A stretch of 9,064 nucleotides of DNA from Candidatus Heimdallarchaeota archaeon B3_Heim (lineage in GTDB: Archaea > Asgardarchaeota > Heimdallarchaeia > Hodarchaeales > Hodarchaeaceae), in contig NJBF01000075.1 in assembly GCA_003144275.1 (NCBI GenBank), forward strand, positions 1 through 9,064, written 5' to 3'. This document shows, piece by piece, positions 1-9,064 of the stretch. How positions within the stretch are numbered: position 1 is the first letter of the stretch; every line of letters begins with the position of its first letter. The position numbers and the translations under genes were made by a program. The notes beneath the pieces are model-generated. The model was not told the DNA's origin. It did no database searches and saw only the letters and a program-made list of their open reading frames with translations.

Positions 1-1579
1 AACTGAAAATGCCATCACAAGGACACTGGATTTGGACGCTTTGAGGGTCACTGAGACCTCAAGTTTGTCCTCCTTCATGTAACTTGAACATATTGGATTA
101 CTTGGGTGATGCATTGTCTACACTGAAGAAAGTTGGGAGAATTAGCTTGTTATAATTACTTGTAATATATGCATCACCTGTTACATGAATGACAGTGATG
201 GATTTGTGAAGGTCAATGTCATGCAAGGACACAAAAAGAAACTTTTTGTGACCACTATGTCAGTGAGCATGGCCCTGCTTGACCTTGAAGATAACTGAAG
301 GTTTGCAACACCTAGAGCTTGTTAGTGTGATATCTCAAGAACCTTTCAAAGTGCTTTATCAGGGCTAAGGTGAAAAAATTATCAATAACTGACTAGATTT
401 ACTAACCGAAGGGTCAGGGGTCAAGGTCACAGAAGGAAACATCAGAGAACATTTGGTGACCCTTTCACTGTTGATCACAAAGGGGGTAAGTGCAAATTGT
501 CATCATCACTATGATCTAAGCTAAAGTTGGTCAAAGTGGGATACTTCAGCGACCTCTGCATGAGGAAGTCCTTGCCTGATTATGTTGGACGATGCCCATA
601 TCAACCCTGGCAGCTGAACATATTGCAACAAAAGGAAACGTCCTTCACTGTATAAGCAACATCCTGATATAATCTTACCTAATTAACACATGATGAATCT
701 AATTATAACTTGTTGTAGGCGTACTCCAACCACTAGCAATCCTTTCCAACACGAGGGAGTGCCTTAAAACTGTTGTGATGTGATGATAAGGTTTTCTGTT
801 GCTCCAGATATGGTGACTTTCACATAGAACAGATGAAAGACTTTCGTTTTCCAAGTTTTTATTGTCACTGTGTTTTTATATATAAAATAATTTAATGTAT
901 AAAATGGCACACATATTTTACAATCCAATAAATGAGTCTCATAAACTACTCTCAAACTGTAAACATGCAGTTTATGTATTCATTTATAACCTGTACATTC
1001 GTCTTAATAAAAACTCCCACTTGAAACTGCATATTTCTGCGCACAAATAAATAACTCTGCTACTGTAACCACTTCAACACCCGAGTGTGGTCTGCAATAT
1101 TTTTGTTTCATCTGGCCTTGTGCAGCCATGTAGACTTATATAACAAGGAAGTCATGGCAGATCAACAGGGGATATGATCAGAGAGAAGTGATAAGCACCT
1201 CTTGATCATGGTCACCAATGACATATCCTGGGTAGTGTGGGGATGAGAGGCCTCAGTACACCTGTATACACAAAAAAGGCCAGGCTACAACTGGTCAGGG
1301 GCACATACGCAAGTCAAGTGCCACCCTTTCAGGCTACCCCCCACACAATTATAAATGAAATGTAGAAGTTGATTGAGCTGAAATTAACTCTTCTGTGAAG
1401 ATACCCGAGTGTGGGAAAGAAATGTCTATCACCGACAGAACCTTATTGAATGTGTCAGATGTCAGCTGAGGGCAGGTGATTGGAAATATTGGTGTGGGAT
1501 TTTTGCTAGTCTCACACTGAGAGTGTTGAATTCAAGTATTAACACTAAAGAAAGGTTTTTTTCATTATTATCCACCAAT
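1..1579. other. CpG-depleted non-coding segment, eukaryote (metazoan)-like; possible chimeric or foreign DNA
   Basis: No credible ORF in about 1.5 kb. Only 14 CpG counted in 1-1620, against roughly 55-60 expected at an estimated 38% GC. TG/CA dinucleotides are frequent. No Shine-Dalgarno/gene structure. Downstream bacterial genes are not CpG-poor (7 CpG in 1621-1700; 9 in the 321-bp hicA). Confidence 0.6.
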
Positions 1580-1729
1580 TTCATCCTTGCAGTATTGTCA
1601 ATGGGGCTGCTGAGCTACTTTACCGTAACGCTGGGCTGGGAGGCACGCAGCTGGCTCACCGGCATGTCCATCATCCTCGCCACCTACTTCGGCGTCAACC
1701 AGTATCAGAAAAAGACCTTGACTAAATAA
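1580..1729 (+). pseudogene. 5'-truncated small two-helix membrane protein, phage holin-like (3' part of ORF 1409..1729)
   Basis: FILAVLSMGLLSYFTVTLGWEARSWLTGMSIILATYFGVNQYQKKTLTK*: two hydrophobic helices, a short loop and a basic tail. This pattern recalls small phage holin-like proteins (SRKF...YxGxNxxQK), from memory. 1601-1700 is 62% GC with GC-rich third codon positions, against 32% for 1501-1600. No Shine-Dalgarno site or credible start codon. Confidence 0.45.
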
Positions 1730-1760
1730 AGAAAGTATGCTATCTTTCATAAAAAATTAC

Positions 1761-1788
1761 TTGACAATGATATTATATATGATACTAT
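1761..1788 (+). promoter_or_regulatory. sigma70-type promoter of the hicAB operon
   Basis: Perfect TTGACA (1761-1766), 16-bp spacer, extended -10 TGaTACTAT (1780-1788), ending 16 bp before the hicA ATG. Confidence 0.8.
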
Positions 1789-1790
1789 AA
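1767..1790 (+). repeat. Tandem 12-bp direct repeat overlapping the promoter; candidate HicB operator
   Basis: ATGATATTATAT (1767-1778) followed by ATGATACTATAA (1779-1790), 10/12 identical, covering the spacer and the -10 element. HicB antitoxins are known to autorepress through promoter-overlapping sites. Confidence 0.5.
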
Positions 1791-1804
1791 AATTGAAAAT
1801 ATGA

Positions 1805-2125
1805 ATGAGTATTAAGAGGTTAGTCAAATCATTATTACAGAAGAGCGAGAGGGGCGAAAAAGTTGGCGAGTTAACAGTCGATGAAGTACTCAACATCGTA
1901 AAAAACTATTTTGAACGATATGAACGAAAAAAGGGTTCTCATATTAAAGTTCAAGATCAGAGGCTCAAGAAATTCAAAGAACATTTCCCTGATGATGAGC
2001 TATTTTCACTAAATGGAGAGTTTATAATACCTACAAAAGGTGGTAAAAAAGTAAAGCAATGGTATGTAAAGCGATTATTAGAAGCGATAGAAATAATTCA
2101 ATTGATGGAGCAGGAAAGTGAATAA
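1805..2125 (+). CDS. hicA: HicA-family type II toxin (dsRBD-fold mRNA interferase), 106 aa, with an internal insertion
   Basis: KGSH motif (His46), then FIIPTKGGKKVKQWYVKRLLEAI, matching the HicA pattern GSH...P.K...VK..YVK.LL..I. Basic protein. Overlaps the downstream hicB by 8 nt. Confidence 0.8.
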   Translation: MSIKRLVKSLLQKSERGEKVGELTVDEVLNIVKNYFERYERKKGSHIKVQDQRLKKFKEHFPDDELFSLNGEFIIPTKGGKKVKQWYVKRLLEAIEIIQLMEQESE

Positions 2126-2636
2126 AGACCTTAATTATTATCTAAGTTTAAGATATAAAATTGAAATAAATCCTTTACCCGAAGAAGATGGAGGAGGTTT
2201 CGAAGCCTGTATTCCTCAACTTGGGAAGTGGGCTTTTTTAGGTGCAGGGAAAACTATAATAGAGGCACTTGAACATTTAGAAGAAGTAAAGAGAGATTTC
2301 TTTGAGGATTATTTGAAAAAAGGAATAGAAATACCTGAGCCAGAAATTGAAGAAGAAGCCTATAGCGGTAGAATATTATTAAGAATACCACCAAGACTGC
2401 ATATGCAATTAACAAAAGCAGCCCGAAAAGATAGCACGAGTCTAAACCAATATATTCGTAGCTTATTAGAGAGGAAAGTAGATATCAATATATTGACTGA
2501 AAATATCATTAATGAAATATTGAAATACCGGGAGAGTGCAGAATCTTATGCACAGCAAGCAGCAACATGGAAACCTTTATCAAAATCATTAAATGCTGTG
2601 GAAAGATCAGGACCAGAAGAACCTTATGTGCAATAG
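2118..2636 (+). CDS. hicB: HicB-family antitoxin with ribbon-helix-helix DNA-binding domain and a C-terminal extension of about 54 aa
   Basis: N-terminal HicB partial RNase H motif (YKIEINPLPEEDGGGFEACIPQLG...GKTIIEALEHLEE...IPEP). RHH motif YSGRILLRIPPRLH...A.....SLNQYIRSLL. GTG start preceded by GGAGCAGGA. Confidence 0.92.
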   Translation: MNKDLNYYLSLRYKIEINPLPEEDGGGFEACIPQLGKWAFLGAGKTIIEALEHLEEVKRDFFEDYLKKGIEIPEPEIEEEAYSGRILLRIPPRLHMQLTKAARKDSTSLNQYIRSLLERKVDINILTENIINEILKYRESAESYAQQAATWKPLSKSLNAVERSGPEEPYVQ

Positions 2637-2661
2637 TCATATATCTTGCAAGGAAAAACTC

Positions 2662-2690
2662 CTGTCAAAATATTAGAAAGTTAATATAAT
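2662..2690 (+). promoter_or_regulatory. Possible internal promoter for the 135-aa gene
   Basis: CTGTCA (4/6 match to -35), 17 bp, perfect TATAAT (2685-2690). AT-rich context makes a chance match possible. Confidence 0.4.
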
Positions 2691-2708
2691 TTTAAAGAGG
2701 AGTAACAA

Positions 2709-3116
2709 TTGAAGATAAAGGAAGATACGAGAAAAAAATTGATAGACGAAATTAAATTCATTATCAAAAAAATGGAAAAAGAGGCAGAGCCTAAACAAAA
2801 ATTATTTTATTTTAGCGCAATATATGGTGTTGTATCACGGATATTTAATTTAGAATATGATCCTGAGTTAGTTTTTGCATATACTATTTTGAATTTGACC
2901 TACAATCATATTAACGCACGCATCGCGCATGAAGAAAAAATAATAGAAATCCCTGATGAATTATTTGATAAACTTGTAAATGCATCAAAAGAATTTCTAA
3001 ATAAAATAGAAAAAAATGAGAGCTTATGTGATGCTCTTCAGAAATTTGCAGAAATAGGCTATGCGACCACAGGAAATGGATACTATCTTTATCAAAGAGG
3101 CTTACTTCGCTTATAA
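2709..3116 (+). CDS. Hypothetical all-alpha cytoplasmic protein, 135 aa
   Basis: Shine-Dalgarno GAGGAG (2697-2702) before a TTG start. AT-rich codon use like hicAB. Amphipathic helical pattern with a GYATTGNGYYLY motif near the C terminus. No family recognised. Confidence 0.85.
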   Translation: MKIKEDTRKKLIDEIKFIIKKMEKEAEPKQKLFYFSAIYGVVSRIFNLEYDPELVFAYTILNLTYNHINARIAHEEKIIEIPDELFDKLVNASKEFLNKIEKNESLCDALQKFAEIGYATTGNGYYLYQRGLLRL

Positions 3117-3161
3117 GTAGCATACCAAGATTTTTCCTTTCTAATCACTTTATTGTTTCTT

Positions 3162-3190
3162 TTCTCAATTTTCAAAATTTCTGCTATAAT
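3162..3190 (+). promoter_or_regulatory. Extended -10 promoter directly upstream of repeat copy C
   Basis: TTCTCA (3162-3167), 17 bp, TGcTATAAT (3182-3190; perfect extended -10). Confidence 0.5.
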
Positions 3191-3191
3191 A

Positions 3192-3338
3192 GTTTACAAA
3201 TATTTATGAATTTTGGAAAAAATAATATTTTTATGCAATAGCGCTTTTCTTCAATCAAATTTTAGCTTAGAATTTTCTAAAATCGCCTGTAGAAAAATGG
3301 GATCAAGGGGCAAAATTATTGGGTACTTTGGCGAAAGT
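3192..3338 (+). repeat. Dispersed intergenic element, copy C (3' half only)
   Basis: Colinear with 7526-7666 and 8755-8895. Shares CAAATTTTAG (3256-3265 = 7591-7600) and ATTTTCTAAAAT (3272-3283 = 7607-7618) with copy A. Shares TAGCGCTTT and TAGAATTTT with copy B. Confidence 0.7.
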
Positions 3339-3366
3339 TAAACCACCTTGTAATGGCAAGATGCTT

Positions 3367-3394
3367 TTTTGTAATCATGAGAGCTATTACAAAA
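3367..3394. promoter_or_regulatory. Perfect 9-bp inverted repeat; candidate operator or leader hairpin
   Basis: TTTTGTAAT-catgagagct-ATTACAAAA. A further TGTAAT half-site lies at 3349-3354. Confidence 0.45.
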
Positions 3395-3437
3395 CAGGAA
3401 TCAAATATCAACCAAATATTTTGCTCGGAAGAATGGT

Positions 3438-3466
3438 TTTACTTATTACCGATAAATTAGTATTAT
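3438..3466 (+). promoter_or_regulatory. Possible proximal promoter of the serine hydrolase gene
   Basis: TTTACT, 17 bp, TATTAT, ending about 36 bp before the ATG at 3503. Weak match in AT-rich DNA. Confidence 0.35.
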
Positions 3467-3502
3467 GAAGTGAACATTCATAGAAATGTAAAGGAGGATA
3501 AA

Positions 3503-5041
3503 ATGAAAAGCAGGCATTGTCTCCTTATCATATTTTCTACTTTAGTTATCTTTTTTGCCGCTGGCGGATTAAATCAAACCGTAGCTCAAGAGTCTCCTGA
3601 TTACTGGCCAACCAAAGTATGGCGAACCTCGCCCCTTGAGAAACAAGGCATAGATTCAAAGAAGCTTGCGGAAGCAATAGATTACATAATGGAAAATGAC
3701 CCGAATATCCACAGCATGTTGGTCATCAGAAATGGATACATAGTGACAGATGCTTATTTTTATCCGTTTGCGGCCGATGCCAAACACGATATCGCCTCGG
3801 TGACCAAGAGTATCACTTCGACACTTATCGGGATTGCCATCCAGAAGGGTTATATTAAAAGCGTTAAGCAAACGGTCCTGGACTTTTTCCCCGGGCGAAA
3901 AATTGCCAATTTGGATGAAGAAAAAAAGGCGATAACCGTTGAAGATCTTCTGACTATGAAGTCCGGTATGAAGTGTATCAATCGGCCTACAGAAGTCACC
4001 CTTGGCCAAATGATGGGAAGTCCTAATTGGGTGCAGTTTATGCTGGATCTTCCAATGACCGATAAACCGGGGACACATTTCGTTTACAACAGCGGTGCAG
4101 TTCATCTGCTCTCCGCTATCATCCACCAAGCCAGCGGGATGACTACACTTGAATTTGCACAAAATCATCTTTTCAATCATTTAGGTATTACCGATGTAAT
4201 CTGGCCGACCGGACCTCAGGGAAATAACTACGGCTGGGGGAGTGTTCGCATTAAACCTCATGCTATGGCCAAGCTTGGCTATCTTTATCTGCAGAAAGGA
4301 ATGTGGGATGGAGAGAAAATACTGTCTCCGGAATGGGTTGCGGCAGCAACAAGTAAACCGGATGAACACATGTCCGAAAATTACGGTTACCTGTGGTGGC
4401 TCATCCCGACCGATGTTTATTTTGCCAGCGGTAGGGGTGGACAGCATATCTATGTCATTCCCAGCAAGAATATGGTAGTCGTTTTTACAGGAGGCGGGGC
4501 AAGACTCATATCCAAAGTGTTGAACACTTATATCATGCCAGCCGTTCTGCAGGATACTCCGCTTCCGGCCAATCCGGAAAGTGAGGCCTTACTCTTATCA
4601 AAGATTCGACAAGCAGCACAAAAGCCTCAGACAAATCCTGAACCAGCGAAGCCGTTGCCGGAAGTGGCGCAAATGATTTCCGGAAAAACATTCACCTTAG
4701 AACCCAACACCCTTGGGCTCTTGGGCATAACTCTGACATTTCCGGAACAGAATAACGCCGTGCTGAAAATTGATATGGCTCTGGATACTGACCGAAGTCC
4801 GGAATACAAAATCGGGCTGGATAATGTGCACCGTATATCACCGGCACGATTCGGCATCCCTGCGGCCGGCAAGGGATGTTGGATGTCGGATAACACATTT
4901 CACATTGATATCAATGAAATCGGCAATATCAATCGATTCCGAATCACTTTGACATTTGAAGGGAATATGGTATCGGGCAAGTTGGAGGAATTTACAGGGC
5001 TCGGCAGTGTGACCATTATAGGAAGGCTTAAAGAGCAATAG
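3503..5041 (+). CDS. Secreted serine hydrolase, beta-lactamase-related family (class C / NylB-like), 512 aa, with a C-terminal extra domain
   Basis: Shine-Dalgarno AAGGAGG (3491-3497) favours ATG 3503 over GTG 3470. Sec signal MKSRHCLLIIFSTLVIFFAAGG...AQE. Catalytic SxxK (ASVTKS), Tyr motif (FVYNSG), YGYLWW and SGRGGQ motifs. N-terminal WPT..W.TS..E.QG.DS motif typical of the subfamily. Substrate cannot be inferred. Confidence 0.92.
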   Translation: MKSRHCLLIIFSTLVIFFAAGGLNQTVAQESPDYWPTKVWRTSPLEKQGIDSKKLAEAIDYIMENDPNIHSMLVIRNGYIVTDAYFYPFAADAKHDIASVTKSITSTLIGIAIQKGYIKSVKQTVLDFFPGRKIANLDEEKKAITVEDLLTMKSGMKCINRPTEVTLGQMMGSPNWVQFMLDLPMTDKPGTHFVYNSGAVHLLSAIIHQASGMTTLEFAQNHLFNHLGITDVIWPTGPQGNNYGWGSVRIKPHAMAKLGYLYLQKGMWDGEKILSPEWVAAATSKPDEHMSENYGYLWWLIPTDVYFASGRGGQHIYVIPSKNMVVVFTGGGARLISKVLNTYIMPAVLQDTPLPANPESEALLLSKIRQAAQKPQTNPEPAKPLPEVAQMISGKTFTLEPNTLGLLGITLTFPEQNNAVLKIDMALDTDRSPEYKIGLDNVHRISPARFGIPAAGKGCWMSDNTFHIDINEIGNINRFRITLTFEGNMVSGKLEEFTGLGSVTIIGRLKEQ

Positions 5042-5142
5042 AAATTGCATTGCCTGTGGAAAGCTGGGGGCGAGATACAAGCTTTATCGCGTATTTTGTC
5101 AAAAATTAAAACAGCTTGCAGCAAGAAGGGCTTAAATTAAAC

Positions 5143-5607
5143 ATGAACATCCTGATTCTTTATAAAACCAAATACGGCAGTACCGAGCAGTATGCAAGGT
5201 GGATTGCAGAGGAAGTGAATGCAGATATATCCGATGTTGAGAGTTTTGATATAAATCGCTTAGACAGCTATTACACAATAATCATCGGTTCTCCCACATA
5301 CATGGGTCAAATCCAAATGAAAGATTTTCTGGAACAGAATTGGGAGATATTGAAGCACAAGAACATATATTTATTTACTGTAGGAATGTTCCCCTGGGAG
5401 TCTCCGGAAAGCAAAAAGTCATTTGAAATGATTCGCGAACATATTCGGGACAAAATAGGTTTCTCAAAACTCCCCGGAAGGCTTGACACAGGTAAGTTGA
5501 GCCTATCTGAGAAATTAATAGCCAAACTTACCAAAGCAAAGCCTGAAGACAAGGTGCACAGAGACAACATTGCTCAAATTGTCAAATGGGTAAAAGAGTT
5601 AAGTTAA
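5143..5607 (+). CDS. Flavodoxin-domain protein (Flavodoxin_5 / HemG-like), 154 aa
   Basis: MNILILYKTKYGSTEQYARWIAEE (FMN phosphate-binding loop), IIIGSPTYMGQI, LFTVG and LPGRLD motifs. ATG 5143 gives the canonical family N terminus (the ORF track starts at TTG 5116). Protoporphyrinogen oxidase activity is not demonstrable from sequence. Confidence 0.88.
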   Translation: MNILILYKTKYGSTEQYARWIAEEVNADISDVESFDINRLDSYYTIIIGSPTYMGQIQMKDFLEQNWEILKHKNIYLFTVGMFPWESPESKKSFEMIREHIRDKIGFSKLPGRLDTGKLSLSEKLIAKLTKAKPEDKVHRDNIAQIVKWVKELS

Positions 5608-5646
5608 AATTGATACTAAGGGGCAAAATGGCTTTTTAGTTTATAA

Positions 5647-5895
5647 AAACAGTATGGCGTTAAATTAATTATCTCACGACATTTTTTTCAAGTTGTTCTT
5701 GTCGAAAATGGAAAGTTATTTATGTCGGATTTCGCAGCAAGAGGTAAAATACTTCAGCTCTATCCTGAAAGTAAAACCAAATTCTTTGCGATCCCTCAGG
5801 AGTATGTGCTTGAGTTTATTTGAGGTAAAGACGGAAAAGCGGAAAAAATGAAAGTATTTGCAGAAAGAATGACACTAATTGCAACGCGAGAATAA
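5647..5895 (+). pseudogene. Orphan C-terminal domain remnant (DUF3471-like, typical of serine hydrolase C termini) with an in-frame TGA
   Basis: Hand translation: KQYGVKLIISRHFFQVVLVENGKLFMSDFAARGKILQLYPESKTKFFAIPQEYVLEFI*GKDGKAEKMKVFAERMTLIATRE**. ENGKLF, LYPESKTKFF and EF.R.KDGK match the DUF3471-type pattern. TGA at 5821-5823, upstream stop at 5644-5646, no start codon or Shine-Dalgarno site. Confidence 0.68.
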
Positions 5896-6026
5896 TAGAT
5901 ATTACGAATTGAATAAATATTAAATTAATACTTCATTCTAAGCAATTACAAGTTTGAATTGAGAAAAATTGGCAAACAATGACCATTAAATTAAAGAAGT
6001 CGAATAAAAATAGGAGGTAATAAACA

Positions 6027-7370
6027 ATGAAAAAATTACGTTGGACTTTTTTTATTGTTGGCGTTTTATGCTTAATTTGTGTCTGTATCACGATATTTAT
6101 TTCATGCAATAAAACACCAAAAGAAGAGGTAGCAAAGGCAGAACAAGAAAGAATCGAAACAAAGGGTCAGTTAGAAAAAACAGCTAAGTCTGAAATAACA
6201 ATTAGAATGCTGGCAAAAAATAAAAAAGTAATTCCAATTTACTATAAATATGGTGATTATTGGAATACTAATATCAAACTCCCAGATGTAGTGGTCGTAA
6301 ATAACACTGATAATTCAGCAACTATCAAAGAAATTTGCGTGACCGGAAAGATGGAAGGAAGGGAAGTTGTAAATTATATGATTTATGAAGATGAATTTAG
6401 AGATATTATTATTAATGGAAATAAGCTTCTCAACAGGTTAACAGAAGATCCAAACAATATATGGAGAATGTATAATTTAGGATTAAGATATGGAAATGTT
6501 CCCATCACAGGAAAAAGATATAAAGAGGATAATATCATTGCTCCATCTGAAATGACAAGCATAAATTTGTCTACGCGCTTGTACTTTAATTATGAAGGTC
6601 GAGATAAGGTAAATGAAGTATGGTGTCAAATAACAATTGATTTGGACTCTGATATGAAGCAATTCGCATTTCCTGTGCCGTTGACTCCTTATGCATGTAA
6701 AGGCGATTATATCTTCCCAGTAAAAGGAAGTGTAACTGTCGTTGGTCTTCCCTATAATGACGCACAAGGGCATAGAGGTGCTACATCCCAGGAATTTGCC
6801 ATCGATATTGTTGATTACAGGCGATTAGGAAACAACAGACAATTGAGTCTTTCTGCAATACCCAAATCAGCAAAGGTAACAGATTATTTTGCATTTTATA
6901 GAGACGTGCTGGCAATAGGAGATGGGATTATTGTAGCAGCAGGTAACAATTGGCCTGACAAGTGGATGGAAAACCCACAACAATATTCTGTCGAACGAGT
7001 GACAGATTTAACGCTCAAGTTGCTCGAGGATGGTATGGATTTCATACATGCAATACTGGGCAATTATGTAATAATTGACCATCAAAATGGAGAGTTTAGC
7101 CTTTATTGTCACATGAGTGAAGGCACTGTAACAGTAAAACCTGGTGCTATTGTTAAACAAGGCCAAGTAATCGGTAAAATTGGCAATACGAGCAACTCAA
7201 CTGATCCCCATCTTCATTTCCAACTAATGGATTCAAAAGACTTTCTCACAGCTAATGGTCTTCCAGTGATGTTTAAAGATGTGCCTGCACCACGGGATCC
7301 TATGCATGATTATAAAGAATCAAACTCGCTTTTGTTTTCTGACTATATTTTTCTTTATATACCTGAGTGA
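6027..7370 (+). CDS. M23-family metallopeptidase lipoprotein, 447 aa, with an unrecognised N-terminal domain
   Basis: Shine-Dalgarno AGGAGG. Signal peptide with lipobox FIS-C27. M23 motifs HRGATSQEFAID, GNYVIIDH, LYCHMSEG, VKQGQVIGKIGNTSNSTDPHLHFQL (HxH). Confidence 0.9.
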   Translation: MKKLRWTFFIVGVLCLICVCITIFISCNKTPKEEVAKAEQERIETKGQLEKTAKSEITIRMLAKNKKVIPIYYKYGDYWNTNIKLPDVVVVNNTDNSATIKEICVTGKMEGREVVNYMIYEDEFRDIIINGNKLLNRLTEDPNNIWRMYNLGLRYGNVPITGKRYKEDNIIAPSEMTSINLSTRLYFNYEGRDKVNEVWCQITIDLDSDMKQFAFPVPLTPYACKGDYIFPVKGSVTVVGLPYNDAQGHRGATSQEFAIDIVDYRRLGNNRQLSLSAIPKSAKVTDYFAFYRDVLAIGDGIIVAAGNNWPDKWMENPQQYSVERVTDLTLKLLEDGMDFIHAILGNYVIIDHQNGEFSLYCHMSEGTVTVKPGAIVKQGQVIGKIGNTSNSTDPHLHFQLMDSKDFLTANGLPVMFKDVPAPRDPMHDYKESNSLLFSDYIFLYIPE

Positions 7371-7400
7371 TTACGAGAAACAAAAGTTTTTCATAGACAG

Positions 7401-7666
7401 TAGCTATTAAGAGATGGGGTATTAAAATAGCAAATAGGGTGTTATTTCTGTATCTCGCCAAATAGATATATAAAAATATAGTTATTGTTAGAGCTTATTT
7501 TTCTGCTTTTAGCTCACCTTTAAAGGCTAACCAAGACTTTTACATTTGAAGAATAGACGATATTTTTATAATTAAGGGCTTCGCTTAGGACAAATTTTAG
7601 ATTAAGATTTTCTAAAATATGCTGTGTAAAAATCGAGATAAGAAACAAAATAGTGTGCCATAAGCC
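7401..7666 (+). repeat. Dispersed intergenic element, copy A (about 265 bp)
   Basis: Nearly ungapped alignment to 8631-8895. Core 7462-7521 vs 8691-8750 is 53/60 identical (hand count). The remainder is roughly 65-70% identical by eye. Confidence 0.85.
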
Positions 7667-7697
7667 AAATGTTATAGCATTGTTAATCACCCTGTTA

Positions 7698-7706
7698 TGG
7701 TATAAT
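7698..7706 (+). promoter_or_regulatory. Extended -10 promoter of the DUF4412-like gene
   Basis: TGgTATAAT, ending 53 bp before the GTG start and lying just 3' of repeat copy A. Confidence 0.6.
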
Positions 7707-7759
7707 TGCTCGTGAGGCAAATCGGTTACTAAAATTATAACTCCAAAAAGGAGGTTGTC

Positions 7760-8491
7760 GTGCTCGGTTTAAGAAATCTGAAGAAAGCAGCCTTTATGGT
7801 GCTATTGCTCCCTTTAGTAGGGGCTATAGCTGCTCCCCCCGGGGGAGACCTCTATGTGGAGCAGAAAGTAACCACCTCGGGGATGATGGGGCGACCGGGA
7901 ACCACCAGCACCCAGCTGCTATGGATGACCAAGGATATGATGCGCAGTGAGGAGCCTGAACAACAAAGAGCGATAATCTTCCGCCTGGACAAAAATCTCT
8001 TTTATATGCTCAACATGGCCGATAAGACCTACCAGGAGGTAACCTCAGAAGATTTCAAAAAGATGCTCAGCATGGGTGGTGCCATGCTTGGGAGAGAAGA
8101 GGAGGCTGGGGAGCTGAACCTCACAAAGACAGGAAAGAGGCAGAAAATCGGTCAGTGGGACTGCTATCAGGTGGTCATGGAGCAGCCCAATATGAAGATC
8201 GATATGTGGCTTACCGAAGAGGTCACCTTTGACAGCACCATGTTCCAGAAATACATGGAGGCCATGGGGGGACCCTTCTTCAGCAAAGAGGTCATTGAAC
8301 AATGGGCTGCCCTGAAGGGATATCCCATTAAGAGTGAGACCACCTTTACTATGGGGACCATGAAAACCACCTCTACCACCATGGTCACCAAGGTCAGCCA
8401 GAAGTCTATAGCCAAAGACATCTTCAGCCCACCTCCCGATTACAAGAAGGTCCCCTTTGAAATGCCCGGCATCCCTCCTGAGGGGAGTTGA
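7760..8491 (+). CDS. Secreted DUF4412-like protein, 243 aa
   Basis: Shine-Dalgarno AAGGAGG before a GTG start. Signal peptide. Beta-rich pattern IIFRLDKNLFYMLNMADKTYQEV, KTGKRQKIGQWDCYQV, MWLTEEV, GYPIKSET and the C-terminal DIFSPPPDYKKV, typical of the family as recalled. Noticeably more GC-rich than the neighbouring M23 gene. Confidence 0.8.
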   Translation: MLGLRNLKKAAFMVLLLPLVGAIAAPPGGDLYVEQKVTTSGMMGRPGTTSTQLLWMTKDMMRSEEPEQQRAIIFRLDKNLFYMLNMADKTYQEVTSEDFKKMLSMGGAMLGREEEAGELNLTKTGKRQKIGQWDCYQVVMEQPNMKIDMWLTEEVTFDSTMFQKYMEAMGGPFFSKEVIEQWAALKGYPIKSETTFTMGTMKTTSTTMVTKVSQKSIAKDIFSPPPDYKKVPFEMPGIPPEGS

Positions 8492-8510
8492 AGAGTTATC
8501 TTTTAAAGAA

Positions 8511-8633
8511 CAGAGGCTCAGCTTTTAGCAAAGGGGGGAGAGTCGGTCACTGCCCTCTCCAAAGGGGTAGAGTGATCACAGAGGCATAGGGCAATATAAT
8601 TTTTAGCAGAGTCGGAGAAGAGAAGTCCTGAGC
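8511..8633. repeat. GC-rich segment with internal direct repeats and hairpin potential
   Basis: CAGAGGC (8511, 8579), TTTTAGCA (8523, 8601) and AGAGTCGG (8539, 8608) each occur twice in the same order. GCTCAG (8516-8521) and CTGAGC (8628-8633) are complementary, as are GGAGAG (8537-8542) and CTCTCC (8555-8560). Confidence 0.5.
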
Positions 8634-8895
8634 ATTAAGAGCTGGGAGTATTAAACCATAAAAAATAGCGCTATTTTTATATTGCGACAGATAGATATCT
8701 AAAAATATAGCCATTTTTAGAGCTTATTTCCCTGCTTTTAGTTCACCTTTGTGGGTTAACAAATACTTTTATATCTTTAGGAGAGGCGATATTTTTTAAC
8801 TTTTAGCGCTTTATTTCAAAAATTATTTTGAATAGAATTTTTAAAAATCGTCTTTGGAAGAATGGGGAGAAGGGAAAAAATAATTTGCCAAAGTC
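8631..8895 (+). repeat. Dispersed intergenic element, copy B (about 265 bp)
   Basis: Aligns end to end with copy A (7401-7666), and its 3' half aligns with copy C. Contains a perfect 18-bp palindrome AAAAATAGCGCTATTTTT (8661-8678). Confidence 0.85.
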
Positions 8896-8928
8896 ATAAT
8901 ATATTGCATATTGCAACATATATATTAT
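8896..8928. promoter_or_regulatory. Nested inverted repeat just upstream of the -35 element; candidate operator
   Basis: ATAATATAT (8896-8904) and ATATATTAT (8920-8928) are complementary. Inner TTGCA-tat-TGCAA (8904-8916). Tandem ATATTGC x2 (8901-8914). Confidence 0.5.
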
Positions 8929-8935
8929 TAAAAGC

Positions 8936-8964
8936 TTGACAAAGCAAATTTAGCATATTATATT
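8936..8964 (+). promoter_or_regulatory. sigma70-type promoter of the last gene
   Basis: TTGACA (8936-8941), 17 bp, TATATT (8959-8964). Confidence 0.75.
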
Positions 8965-9007
8965 AATAATTAAAGTTTCTAATATAAACTCAAGGGGGTG
9001 ATATGAG

Positions 9008-9064
9008 ATGAAGAAAATTCTCATTCCCTTATTTATCGCAGCAGTAGGCTGTCTCTTTCTACTC
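9008..9064 (+). CDS. 5' end of a secreted or membrane protein (cut by the window edge)
   Basis: Shine-Dalgarno-like AAGGGGGTG (8992-9000). MKKILIPLFIAAVGCLFLL... is a typical signal-peptide start. Confidence 0.7.
   Translation, partial: MKKILIPLFIAAVGCLFLL

Follow-up and report, generated by a model that had tools for sequence, protein, structure and literature searches.

Cross-kingdom contamination and chimeric contigs are a problem of MAGs that is addressed by GUNC and Conterminator. The DNA analysed here (the window, which is the entire contig NJBF01000075.1, or C90, of 9064 bp) belongs to the MAG GCA_003144275.1, which comprises 103 contigs and 3.95 Mb. Like known chimeric MAG contigs, C90 appears to consist of two parts from different domains placed in the bin of a third organism; its foreign piece occupies one end of the contig, and the bin still passes marker-gene quality control (93.97% complete, 3.93% contaminated). 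The partner, by contrast, would be a marine animal instead of the usual human or host genome, while nothing essential differs. The MAG itself has a GC content of 36% and a genome-wide CpG observed/expected ratio (o/e) of 0.75, and one of its contigs (124 kb) has a full-length SSU rRNA of archaeal type. The comparisons described below, all made on sequence, suggest that C90 is very probably an artefactual join, produced in the assembly or in the library, between animal DNA and a contig from a B38-like bacterium, misbinned into this archaeal MAG.

Two other groups of described sequences invite comparison. Positions 1–1570 resemble methylated animal genomes, with their deamination of 5mC, in the depletion of CpG, the symmetric excess of TpG and CpA, a TpA ratio of about 0.72, a GC content of about 39% and a gene-free length of 1.5 kb. 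They differ in that exons could be traced only in another contig of the same MAG (C93:1–1061), whereas 1–1570 contains no exon, repeat or homologue. The second group consists of the Gmr1-like Ty3/gypsy elements of marine animals. The position of the integrase upstream of the reverse transcriptase (RT) in a gypsy-type element is given as the hallmark of Gmr1-like retrotransposons in a passage of PMC8220671, which cites Goodwin & Poulter 2002, and PMC4592553 describes the SCAN domain as a homologue of the Gmr1-like capsid. Two contigs of the bin, C40 and C13, share the integrase-before-RT arrangement and the gypsy-type domains with these elements, and C13 also has the SCAN-like capsid. Unlike the preceding comparison, however, this one concerns contigs other than the window and shows no more than the presence of animal DNA in the bin.

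The original prediction, made from the letters of the window, had described about 1.5 kb of gene-free DNA with 14 CpG where 55–60 were expected, and this description was borne out. Window 1–1580 contains 14 CpG against 61.1 expected (o/e 0.23), and no table-11 ORF longer than 63 aa is contained entirely within 1–1570. In 1–1580 the ratios of TpG, CpA and TpA are 1.50, 1.36 and 0.72, respectively, at a GC content of 39.4%; in the remainder of the window the CpG ratio is 0.72 and those of TpG and CpA are 1.03 and 1.06. Mononucleotide shuffling of 1–1570 (5000 shuffles) gave 60.8 ± 6.3 CpG with a minimum of 42, as compared with the 14 observed. The sliding-window analysis that had been proposed together with the prediction pointed the same way: among 15,222 sliding 1.5-kb windows of the 3.95-Mb genome, 1–1570 ranks first for TG+CA excess (1.44 versus a genome value of 1.04 ± 0.07, that is, 5 sd over the genome mean) and third lowest for CpG. 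A ranking of the 800-bp windows of the genome by TG+CA/CpG is headed by the 5′ ends of two contigs, namely C93:1–800 and C90:1–800. The dinucleotide signature of 1–1570, expressed as Karlin delta* (x 1000), lies at 172 from the MAG and at 209 from the bacterial part of the window (1571–9064), while for random 1.57-kb pieces of the MAG the distance to its mean is 67 ± 25 (99th percentile, 160). The distances from 1–1570 to C93:1–1061 and to C40 are 83–88 and 112, respectively.

Searches of this piece for genes and homologues were uniformly negative. A six-frame Pfam search of 1–1571 in which stops were read as X gave no match, a tRNA scan of 1–1570, aimed at SINE-like elements, gave no tRNA, and an Rfam scan gave no credible match (one chance-level snoRNA at 22 bits versus a gathering score of 90). 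Neither direct, inverted nor tandem repeats occur in 1–1800, and the six-frame Pfam, Rfam and repeat scans revealed neither spliceosomal exon–intron structure nor animal repeats within 1–1570 proper. By blastn, 1–1570 had no match among 50,697 phage records and 72,556 plasmids; it is also without a match in either of the two B38-like genomes that hold the related loci described below (G001 and G002). Among the 399 other genomes in the phylum of the MAG, of which 21 belong to the same genus, only chance matches of 23–37 nt were obtained. The piece has no sequence in common with C93, C40 or C13. JGI metagenome contigs were scanned twice for exact words, once for each side of the junction, and neither a native animal nor a native bacterial continuation was retrieved.

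The other side of the junction could be defined by homology. The 52 residues encoded by 1571–1726 were compared, using HMMER, with 1.8 billion representative proteins, and this retrieved a 62-aa protein (P0003) with 83% identity, the alignment spanning the entire length of that protein. A scan of one genome per prokaryotic species located two loci, NJBL01000062.1 ('MAG: bacterium (candidate division B38)') and CABWKN010000147.1 ('uncultured bacterium isolate GB_MAG SS3'). The blastn alignments to both begin exactly at window position 1571, with 77–85% identity from there onward versus about 43% over the preceding 30 nt. Thus, the abrupt switch to bacterial sequence announced by the original prediction does exist, although its position is about 1571 by homology and not 1580–1600. 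We place the breakpoint no finer than 1544–1571, because a weak resemblance at the protein level (K-x-R...LST) reaches back to 1547. In both relatives the small gene has its ATG, and the upstream 317-aa gene ends 10 nt before it; in the window, AAC stands at 1541–1543 in the expected ATG position. Both relatives also have, upstream of the 62-aa gene, conserved genes for the 317-aa protein, for a 449-aa protein and for an SLT-type transglycosylase, and no trace of this upstream cluster was found in the window.

The peptide of 52 residues fell into no Pfam or PHROG family. In the relatives the order of the four-gene cluster (NJBL01000062.1 7169–10183; CABWKN010000147.1 3551–6562) is SLT-type transglycosylase, 449-aa Ig-like-domain protein, 317-aa membrane-anchored protein and 62-aa protein. 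Its gene content looks like that of a lysis or cell-wall-remodelling cassette, in which the small protein may, by position only, be holin-like.

Two other readings of this region were considered and abandoned. A spliced terminal exon at 1593–1729 would have been preceded by the run ttttttcattattatccaccaatttcatccttgcag as polypyrimidine tract and AG acceptor (1556–1592), but in the relatives this run codes for part of the 62-aa protein. A second junction at about 1730, where GC drops from 62% to 20%, is contradicted by the contiguity of the same sequence in the B38 MAG contig NJBL01000062.1. That contig is collinear with window 1571–2112, at 76.7% identity, as far as its own contig end, and the collinear stretch runs past the stop codon and across the AT-rich promoter into the hicA-like gene (Table 1). 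The AT-rich region is accordingly native to the bacterial lineage and is not a junction.

Table 1. Coordinates of the features recognised in the window and, in the last row, in C93.
Feature	Position	Strand	Observations
Putative foreign, animal-genome-like non-coding DNA	1..1570	.	CpG o/e 0.23; TpG/CpA excess; no gene; no repeats
Breakpoint interval	1544..1571	.	DNA homology to both bacterial relatives from exactly 1571
3′ five-sixths of conserved gene for a 62-aa two-helix membrane protein	1571..1729	+	83% identity to P0003; no ATG, no upstream neighbours
AT-rich intergenic promoter region	1730..1804	+	Nearly identical in NJBL01000062.1; TTGACA-16-TACTAT at 1761-1788
hicA-like gene	1805-2125	+	No Pfam match; hicA-like homologue also after small gene in NJBL01000062.1
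hicB	2118-2636	+	Pfam HicB, E 8.7e-11; PHROG HicB-like
Remaining B38-like genes	2709..9064	+	135-aa unknown, beta-lactamase-fold protein, flavodoxin, M23 peptidase, DUF4412 (Pfam)
Intergenic repeat of ~265 bp, three copies	3195-3340, 7406-7680, 8634-8909		Matches G001 and G002
Exons of C93	278-358 and 562-671		GT-AG intron of 203 nt at 359-561; split codon G/AA keeps frame

The remainder of the window fits the same bacterial lineage. The DUF4412 gene has 74–76% DNA identity to its counterparts in G001 and G002, and this gene and the repeat taken together have 70–88%. The window has no DNA match in the rest of the archaeal MAG, the only matches being those among the copies of its own internal repeat; both the DUF4412 gene and the repeat are absent there. 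The tetranucleotide profile, whose inspection had likewise been proposed at the outset, agrees with this picture: the correlation of 1571–9064 with the MAG mean is 0.917, versus 0.971 ± 0.018 for random 7.5-kb pieces. From the homology of its genes and repeats, 1571–9064 can be assigned to a B38-like sediment bacterium and not to the archaeon. Since this part is bacterial while the MAG is archaeal, C90 is in addition misbinned. The ~265-bp repeat belongs to a multi-copy family, present on at least 8 contigs in G001 and on 2 in G002 at 70–88% identity. The bacterial part had been called CpG-normal, which is true of the rest of the window overall (0.72) but not uniformly so: the DUF4412 gene (7760–8491; GC 51%) has a CpG o/e of 0.29. 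Its B38-like homologues are at 0.40 and 0.52, and the low value is a trait of the gene or of the lineage, not the mark of another animal piece.

A similar situation was encountered at the end of C93, a 110-kb contig the remainder of which is typical of the MAG (delta* 20, x 1000). Its first 1061 nt have a CpG o/e of 0.13, and in six frames Pfam finds MoCoBD_1 (PF02738) twice, on one strand and in two frames, at abutting profile positions (179–215, then 215–244). The borders of both matches are canonical splice sites; those of the first read ttttcag/CTTATTTC...CACCAG/gttgag and those of the second ttgccag/AAAACTCC...CAAAG/gtatgg. On this basis, C93:1–1061 carries two exons of a eukaryotic gene of the xanthine-dehydrogenase/aldehyde-oxidase type. 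The E-values are modest (1e-3, and 8e-4 to 4e-2), but several independent observations sustain the identification as exons: the profile coordinates abut, both matches are on one strand, splice signals border them and their phases agree. A word-based protein search with the exon gave no match, and phmmer against PDB sequences retrieved designed coiled coils only.

Seven relatives of the same genus align to C93 only from position 1062. All seven continue the gene of an M48 (HtpX-type) peptidase with '...ITG NPxGLANALxKL...STHPP', whereas C93 diverges from them after ITG ('...ITG AAEKKASETLGN...', ending in a stop), the fusion lying at 1061/1062. The Pfam match of the C93 M48 protein ends at position 159 of 186, and the missing 3′ part of the gene was found nowhere in the MAG assembly. 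C93 thus provides a second junction, in which eukaryotic DNA is attached to an organism other than that of C90; as in C90, the join sits at the end of a contig and interrupts a conserved gene. In three of the same-genus relatives, the equivalent of C35:15171–16264 is followed by ~306 nt and then by the equivalent of C93:1062 onward. In the MAG, C35 instead runs on beyond 16264 into 6 kb of different DNA, some of it very rich in AT, and the assembly lacks the 306 nt; this divergence could be due to an insertion, a rearrangement or a further misjoin.

One long open polyprotein frame is present on C40 (5.5 kb; CpG 0.35; the most extreme outlier in tetranucleotide composition) and another on C13 (6.8 kb), of 1244 and 1718 aa, respectively. 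The order of domains in both is Integrase_H2C2, rve, Integrase_p58_C, then RVT_1 and RT_RNaseH, with a SCAN domain in addition in C13. Their architecture identifies them as fragments of Gmr1-like Ty3/gypsy LTR retrotransposons of animals. The C40 frame is 59–63% identical to proteins of brittle star, acorn worm, sea cucumber, sea urchin, pearl oyster, scallop and sponge, so that the closest named relatives, established for C40 as the contig searched, are marine invertebrates. The invertebrate source guessed at in the original prediction fits these relationships. Among unnamed proteins, the best match of the same frame, at 80% identity, is encoded on a 2.1-Mb ENA contig. Members of the same retrotransposon family also occur under the prokaryotic labels 'MAG: Candidatus Thiodiazotropha sp.', 'Ca. 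Thiodiazotropha endolucinida' and 'Campylobacter sp. CS_ED1' (P0027, P0076, P0077), which probably means that other public assemblies are contaminated in the same way.

The animal origin of 1–1570 is the most likely one, given its composition and the analogy with C93, C40 and C13, and the join in C90 is almost certainly artificial. The artefact is the preferred reading because two different organisms have animal-type DNA joined to them, and both joins interrupt a conserved gene at the end of a contig. The original prediction had leaned towards a chimera or contamination, and the results support that preference. The junction falls within a gene that both bacterial relatives conserve, while the foreign piece is absent from relatives, phages and plasmids; moreover, a second contig-end fusion with spliceosomal exons and the animal retrotransposons of C40 and C13 lie in the same bin. 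In the scenario that we envisage, DNA of a marine animal with a CpG-methylated genome, most likely an invertebrate, would have come with the sample or found its way into it or the library. One bacterial and one archaeal contig may then have had short animal contigs wrongly joined to their ends, after which composition-based binning would have drawn the joined contigs, together with the two retrotransposon contigs, into the archaeal MAG. The foreign pieces all have a GC content of 37–39%, near the 36% of the MAG, and this similarity would explain why they were binned with it.

A real transfer of DNA between bacterium and animal, which the original prediction had left open, is unlikely in either direction, since the same type of DNA is joined, in one assembly, to a bacterium and to an archaeon that are unrelated to each other. 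Were animal DNA genuinely inserted in the genome of the B38-like bacterium, the unbroken sequence of C90, which contains no Ns, would be accounted for. The foreign DNA, however, is neither flanked on both sides by recipient DNA nor common to relatives: there is one junction, 1.57 kb from the contig end, and 1–1570 is absent from both B38-like genomes. The insertion would also have removed the start of a conserved gene along with the entire conserved cluster upstream of it. A like fusion on the unrelated archaeal contig C93 of the same assembly, as well as free animal retrotransposon contigs in the same bin, further count against such an event, which we regard as extremely improbable. The reverse transfer, which would make C90 part of an animal genome into which 7.5 kb of B38-like bacterial DNA had recently come, deserves no more credence. 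Transfers from bacteria to invertebrates are known in general, and the bacterial genes of C90 look intact. Against residence in an animal, the bacterial part keeps bacterial promoters, intact ORFs and lineage-specific repeats at 70–88% identity to free-living relatives and is without sign of decay or introns; for C93, the parallel would require an animal genome to contain 110 kb of an archaeal chromosome. If the junctions of C90 and C93 were both real, they would imply repeated exchange of DNA between animals and prokaryotes in the habitat, in either direction, a proposition that we hold to be highly unlikely.

It might alternatively be argued that 1–1570 is native prokaryotic non-coding DNA whose composition, through the decay of an island, for instance, or the action of a CpG-specific methylase, mimics the signature of an animal genome. 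Low CpG does occur in some genes of the bacterial block, such as DUF4412 (0.29), and the MAG as a whole is at 0.75. The TG+CA excess of 1–1570, however, stands 5 sd over the genome mean, its six frames are without coding trace, and no homologue is found in relatives, phages or plasmids. In addition, its signature is much closer to that of the C93 piece with the exons than to that of either prokaryote, and the break in homology falls inside a gene. A native origin of 1–1570 is therefore quite improbable, and we retain the artefactual join of animal and bacterial DNA as the explanation of C90.

The finding is almost certainly one of assembly quality and not of gene transfer; its biological interest is small, and its practical weight is that of a warning about sequences of eukaryotic appearance in this MAG, which contains no fewer than four pieces of putative animal DNA (C90:1–1570, C93:1–1061 and all of C40 and C13) in addition to a misbinned bacterial contig. 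Its reverse transcriptase, integrase, SCAN-like capsid and xanthine-dehydrogenase fragments could be mistaken for archaeal 'eukaryotic signature' genes. The case of C93 also illustrates that a chimeric end truncating a real gene is possible even on a contig of 110 kb that is otherwise clean. The combination of CpG o/e, TG+CA excess and ORF density caught all the animal pieces and would serve as a cheap screen. How common such errors are is illustrated by the prokaryote-labelled records of the retrotransposon family of C40. The Thiodiazotropha- and Campylobacter-labelled records would belong to the same class of error as C90, with proteins of animal mobile elements, but they are entire small contigs and not fusions.

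Within the MAG, the small contigs C2, C5, C12, C16, C42 and C73 have a GpC o/e of 1.15–1.26, versus 0.90 for the MAG, and a lowered tetranucleotide correlation, like C90; they may be further misbinned contigs.
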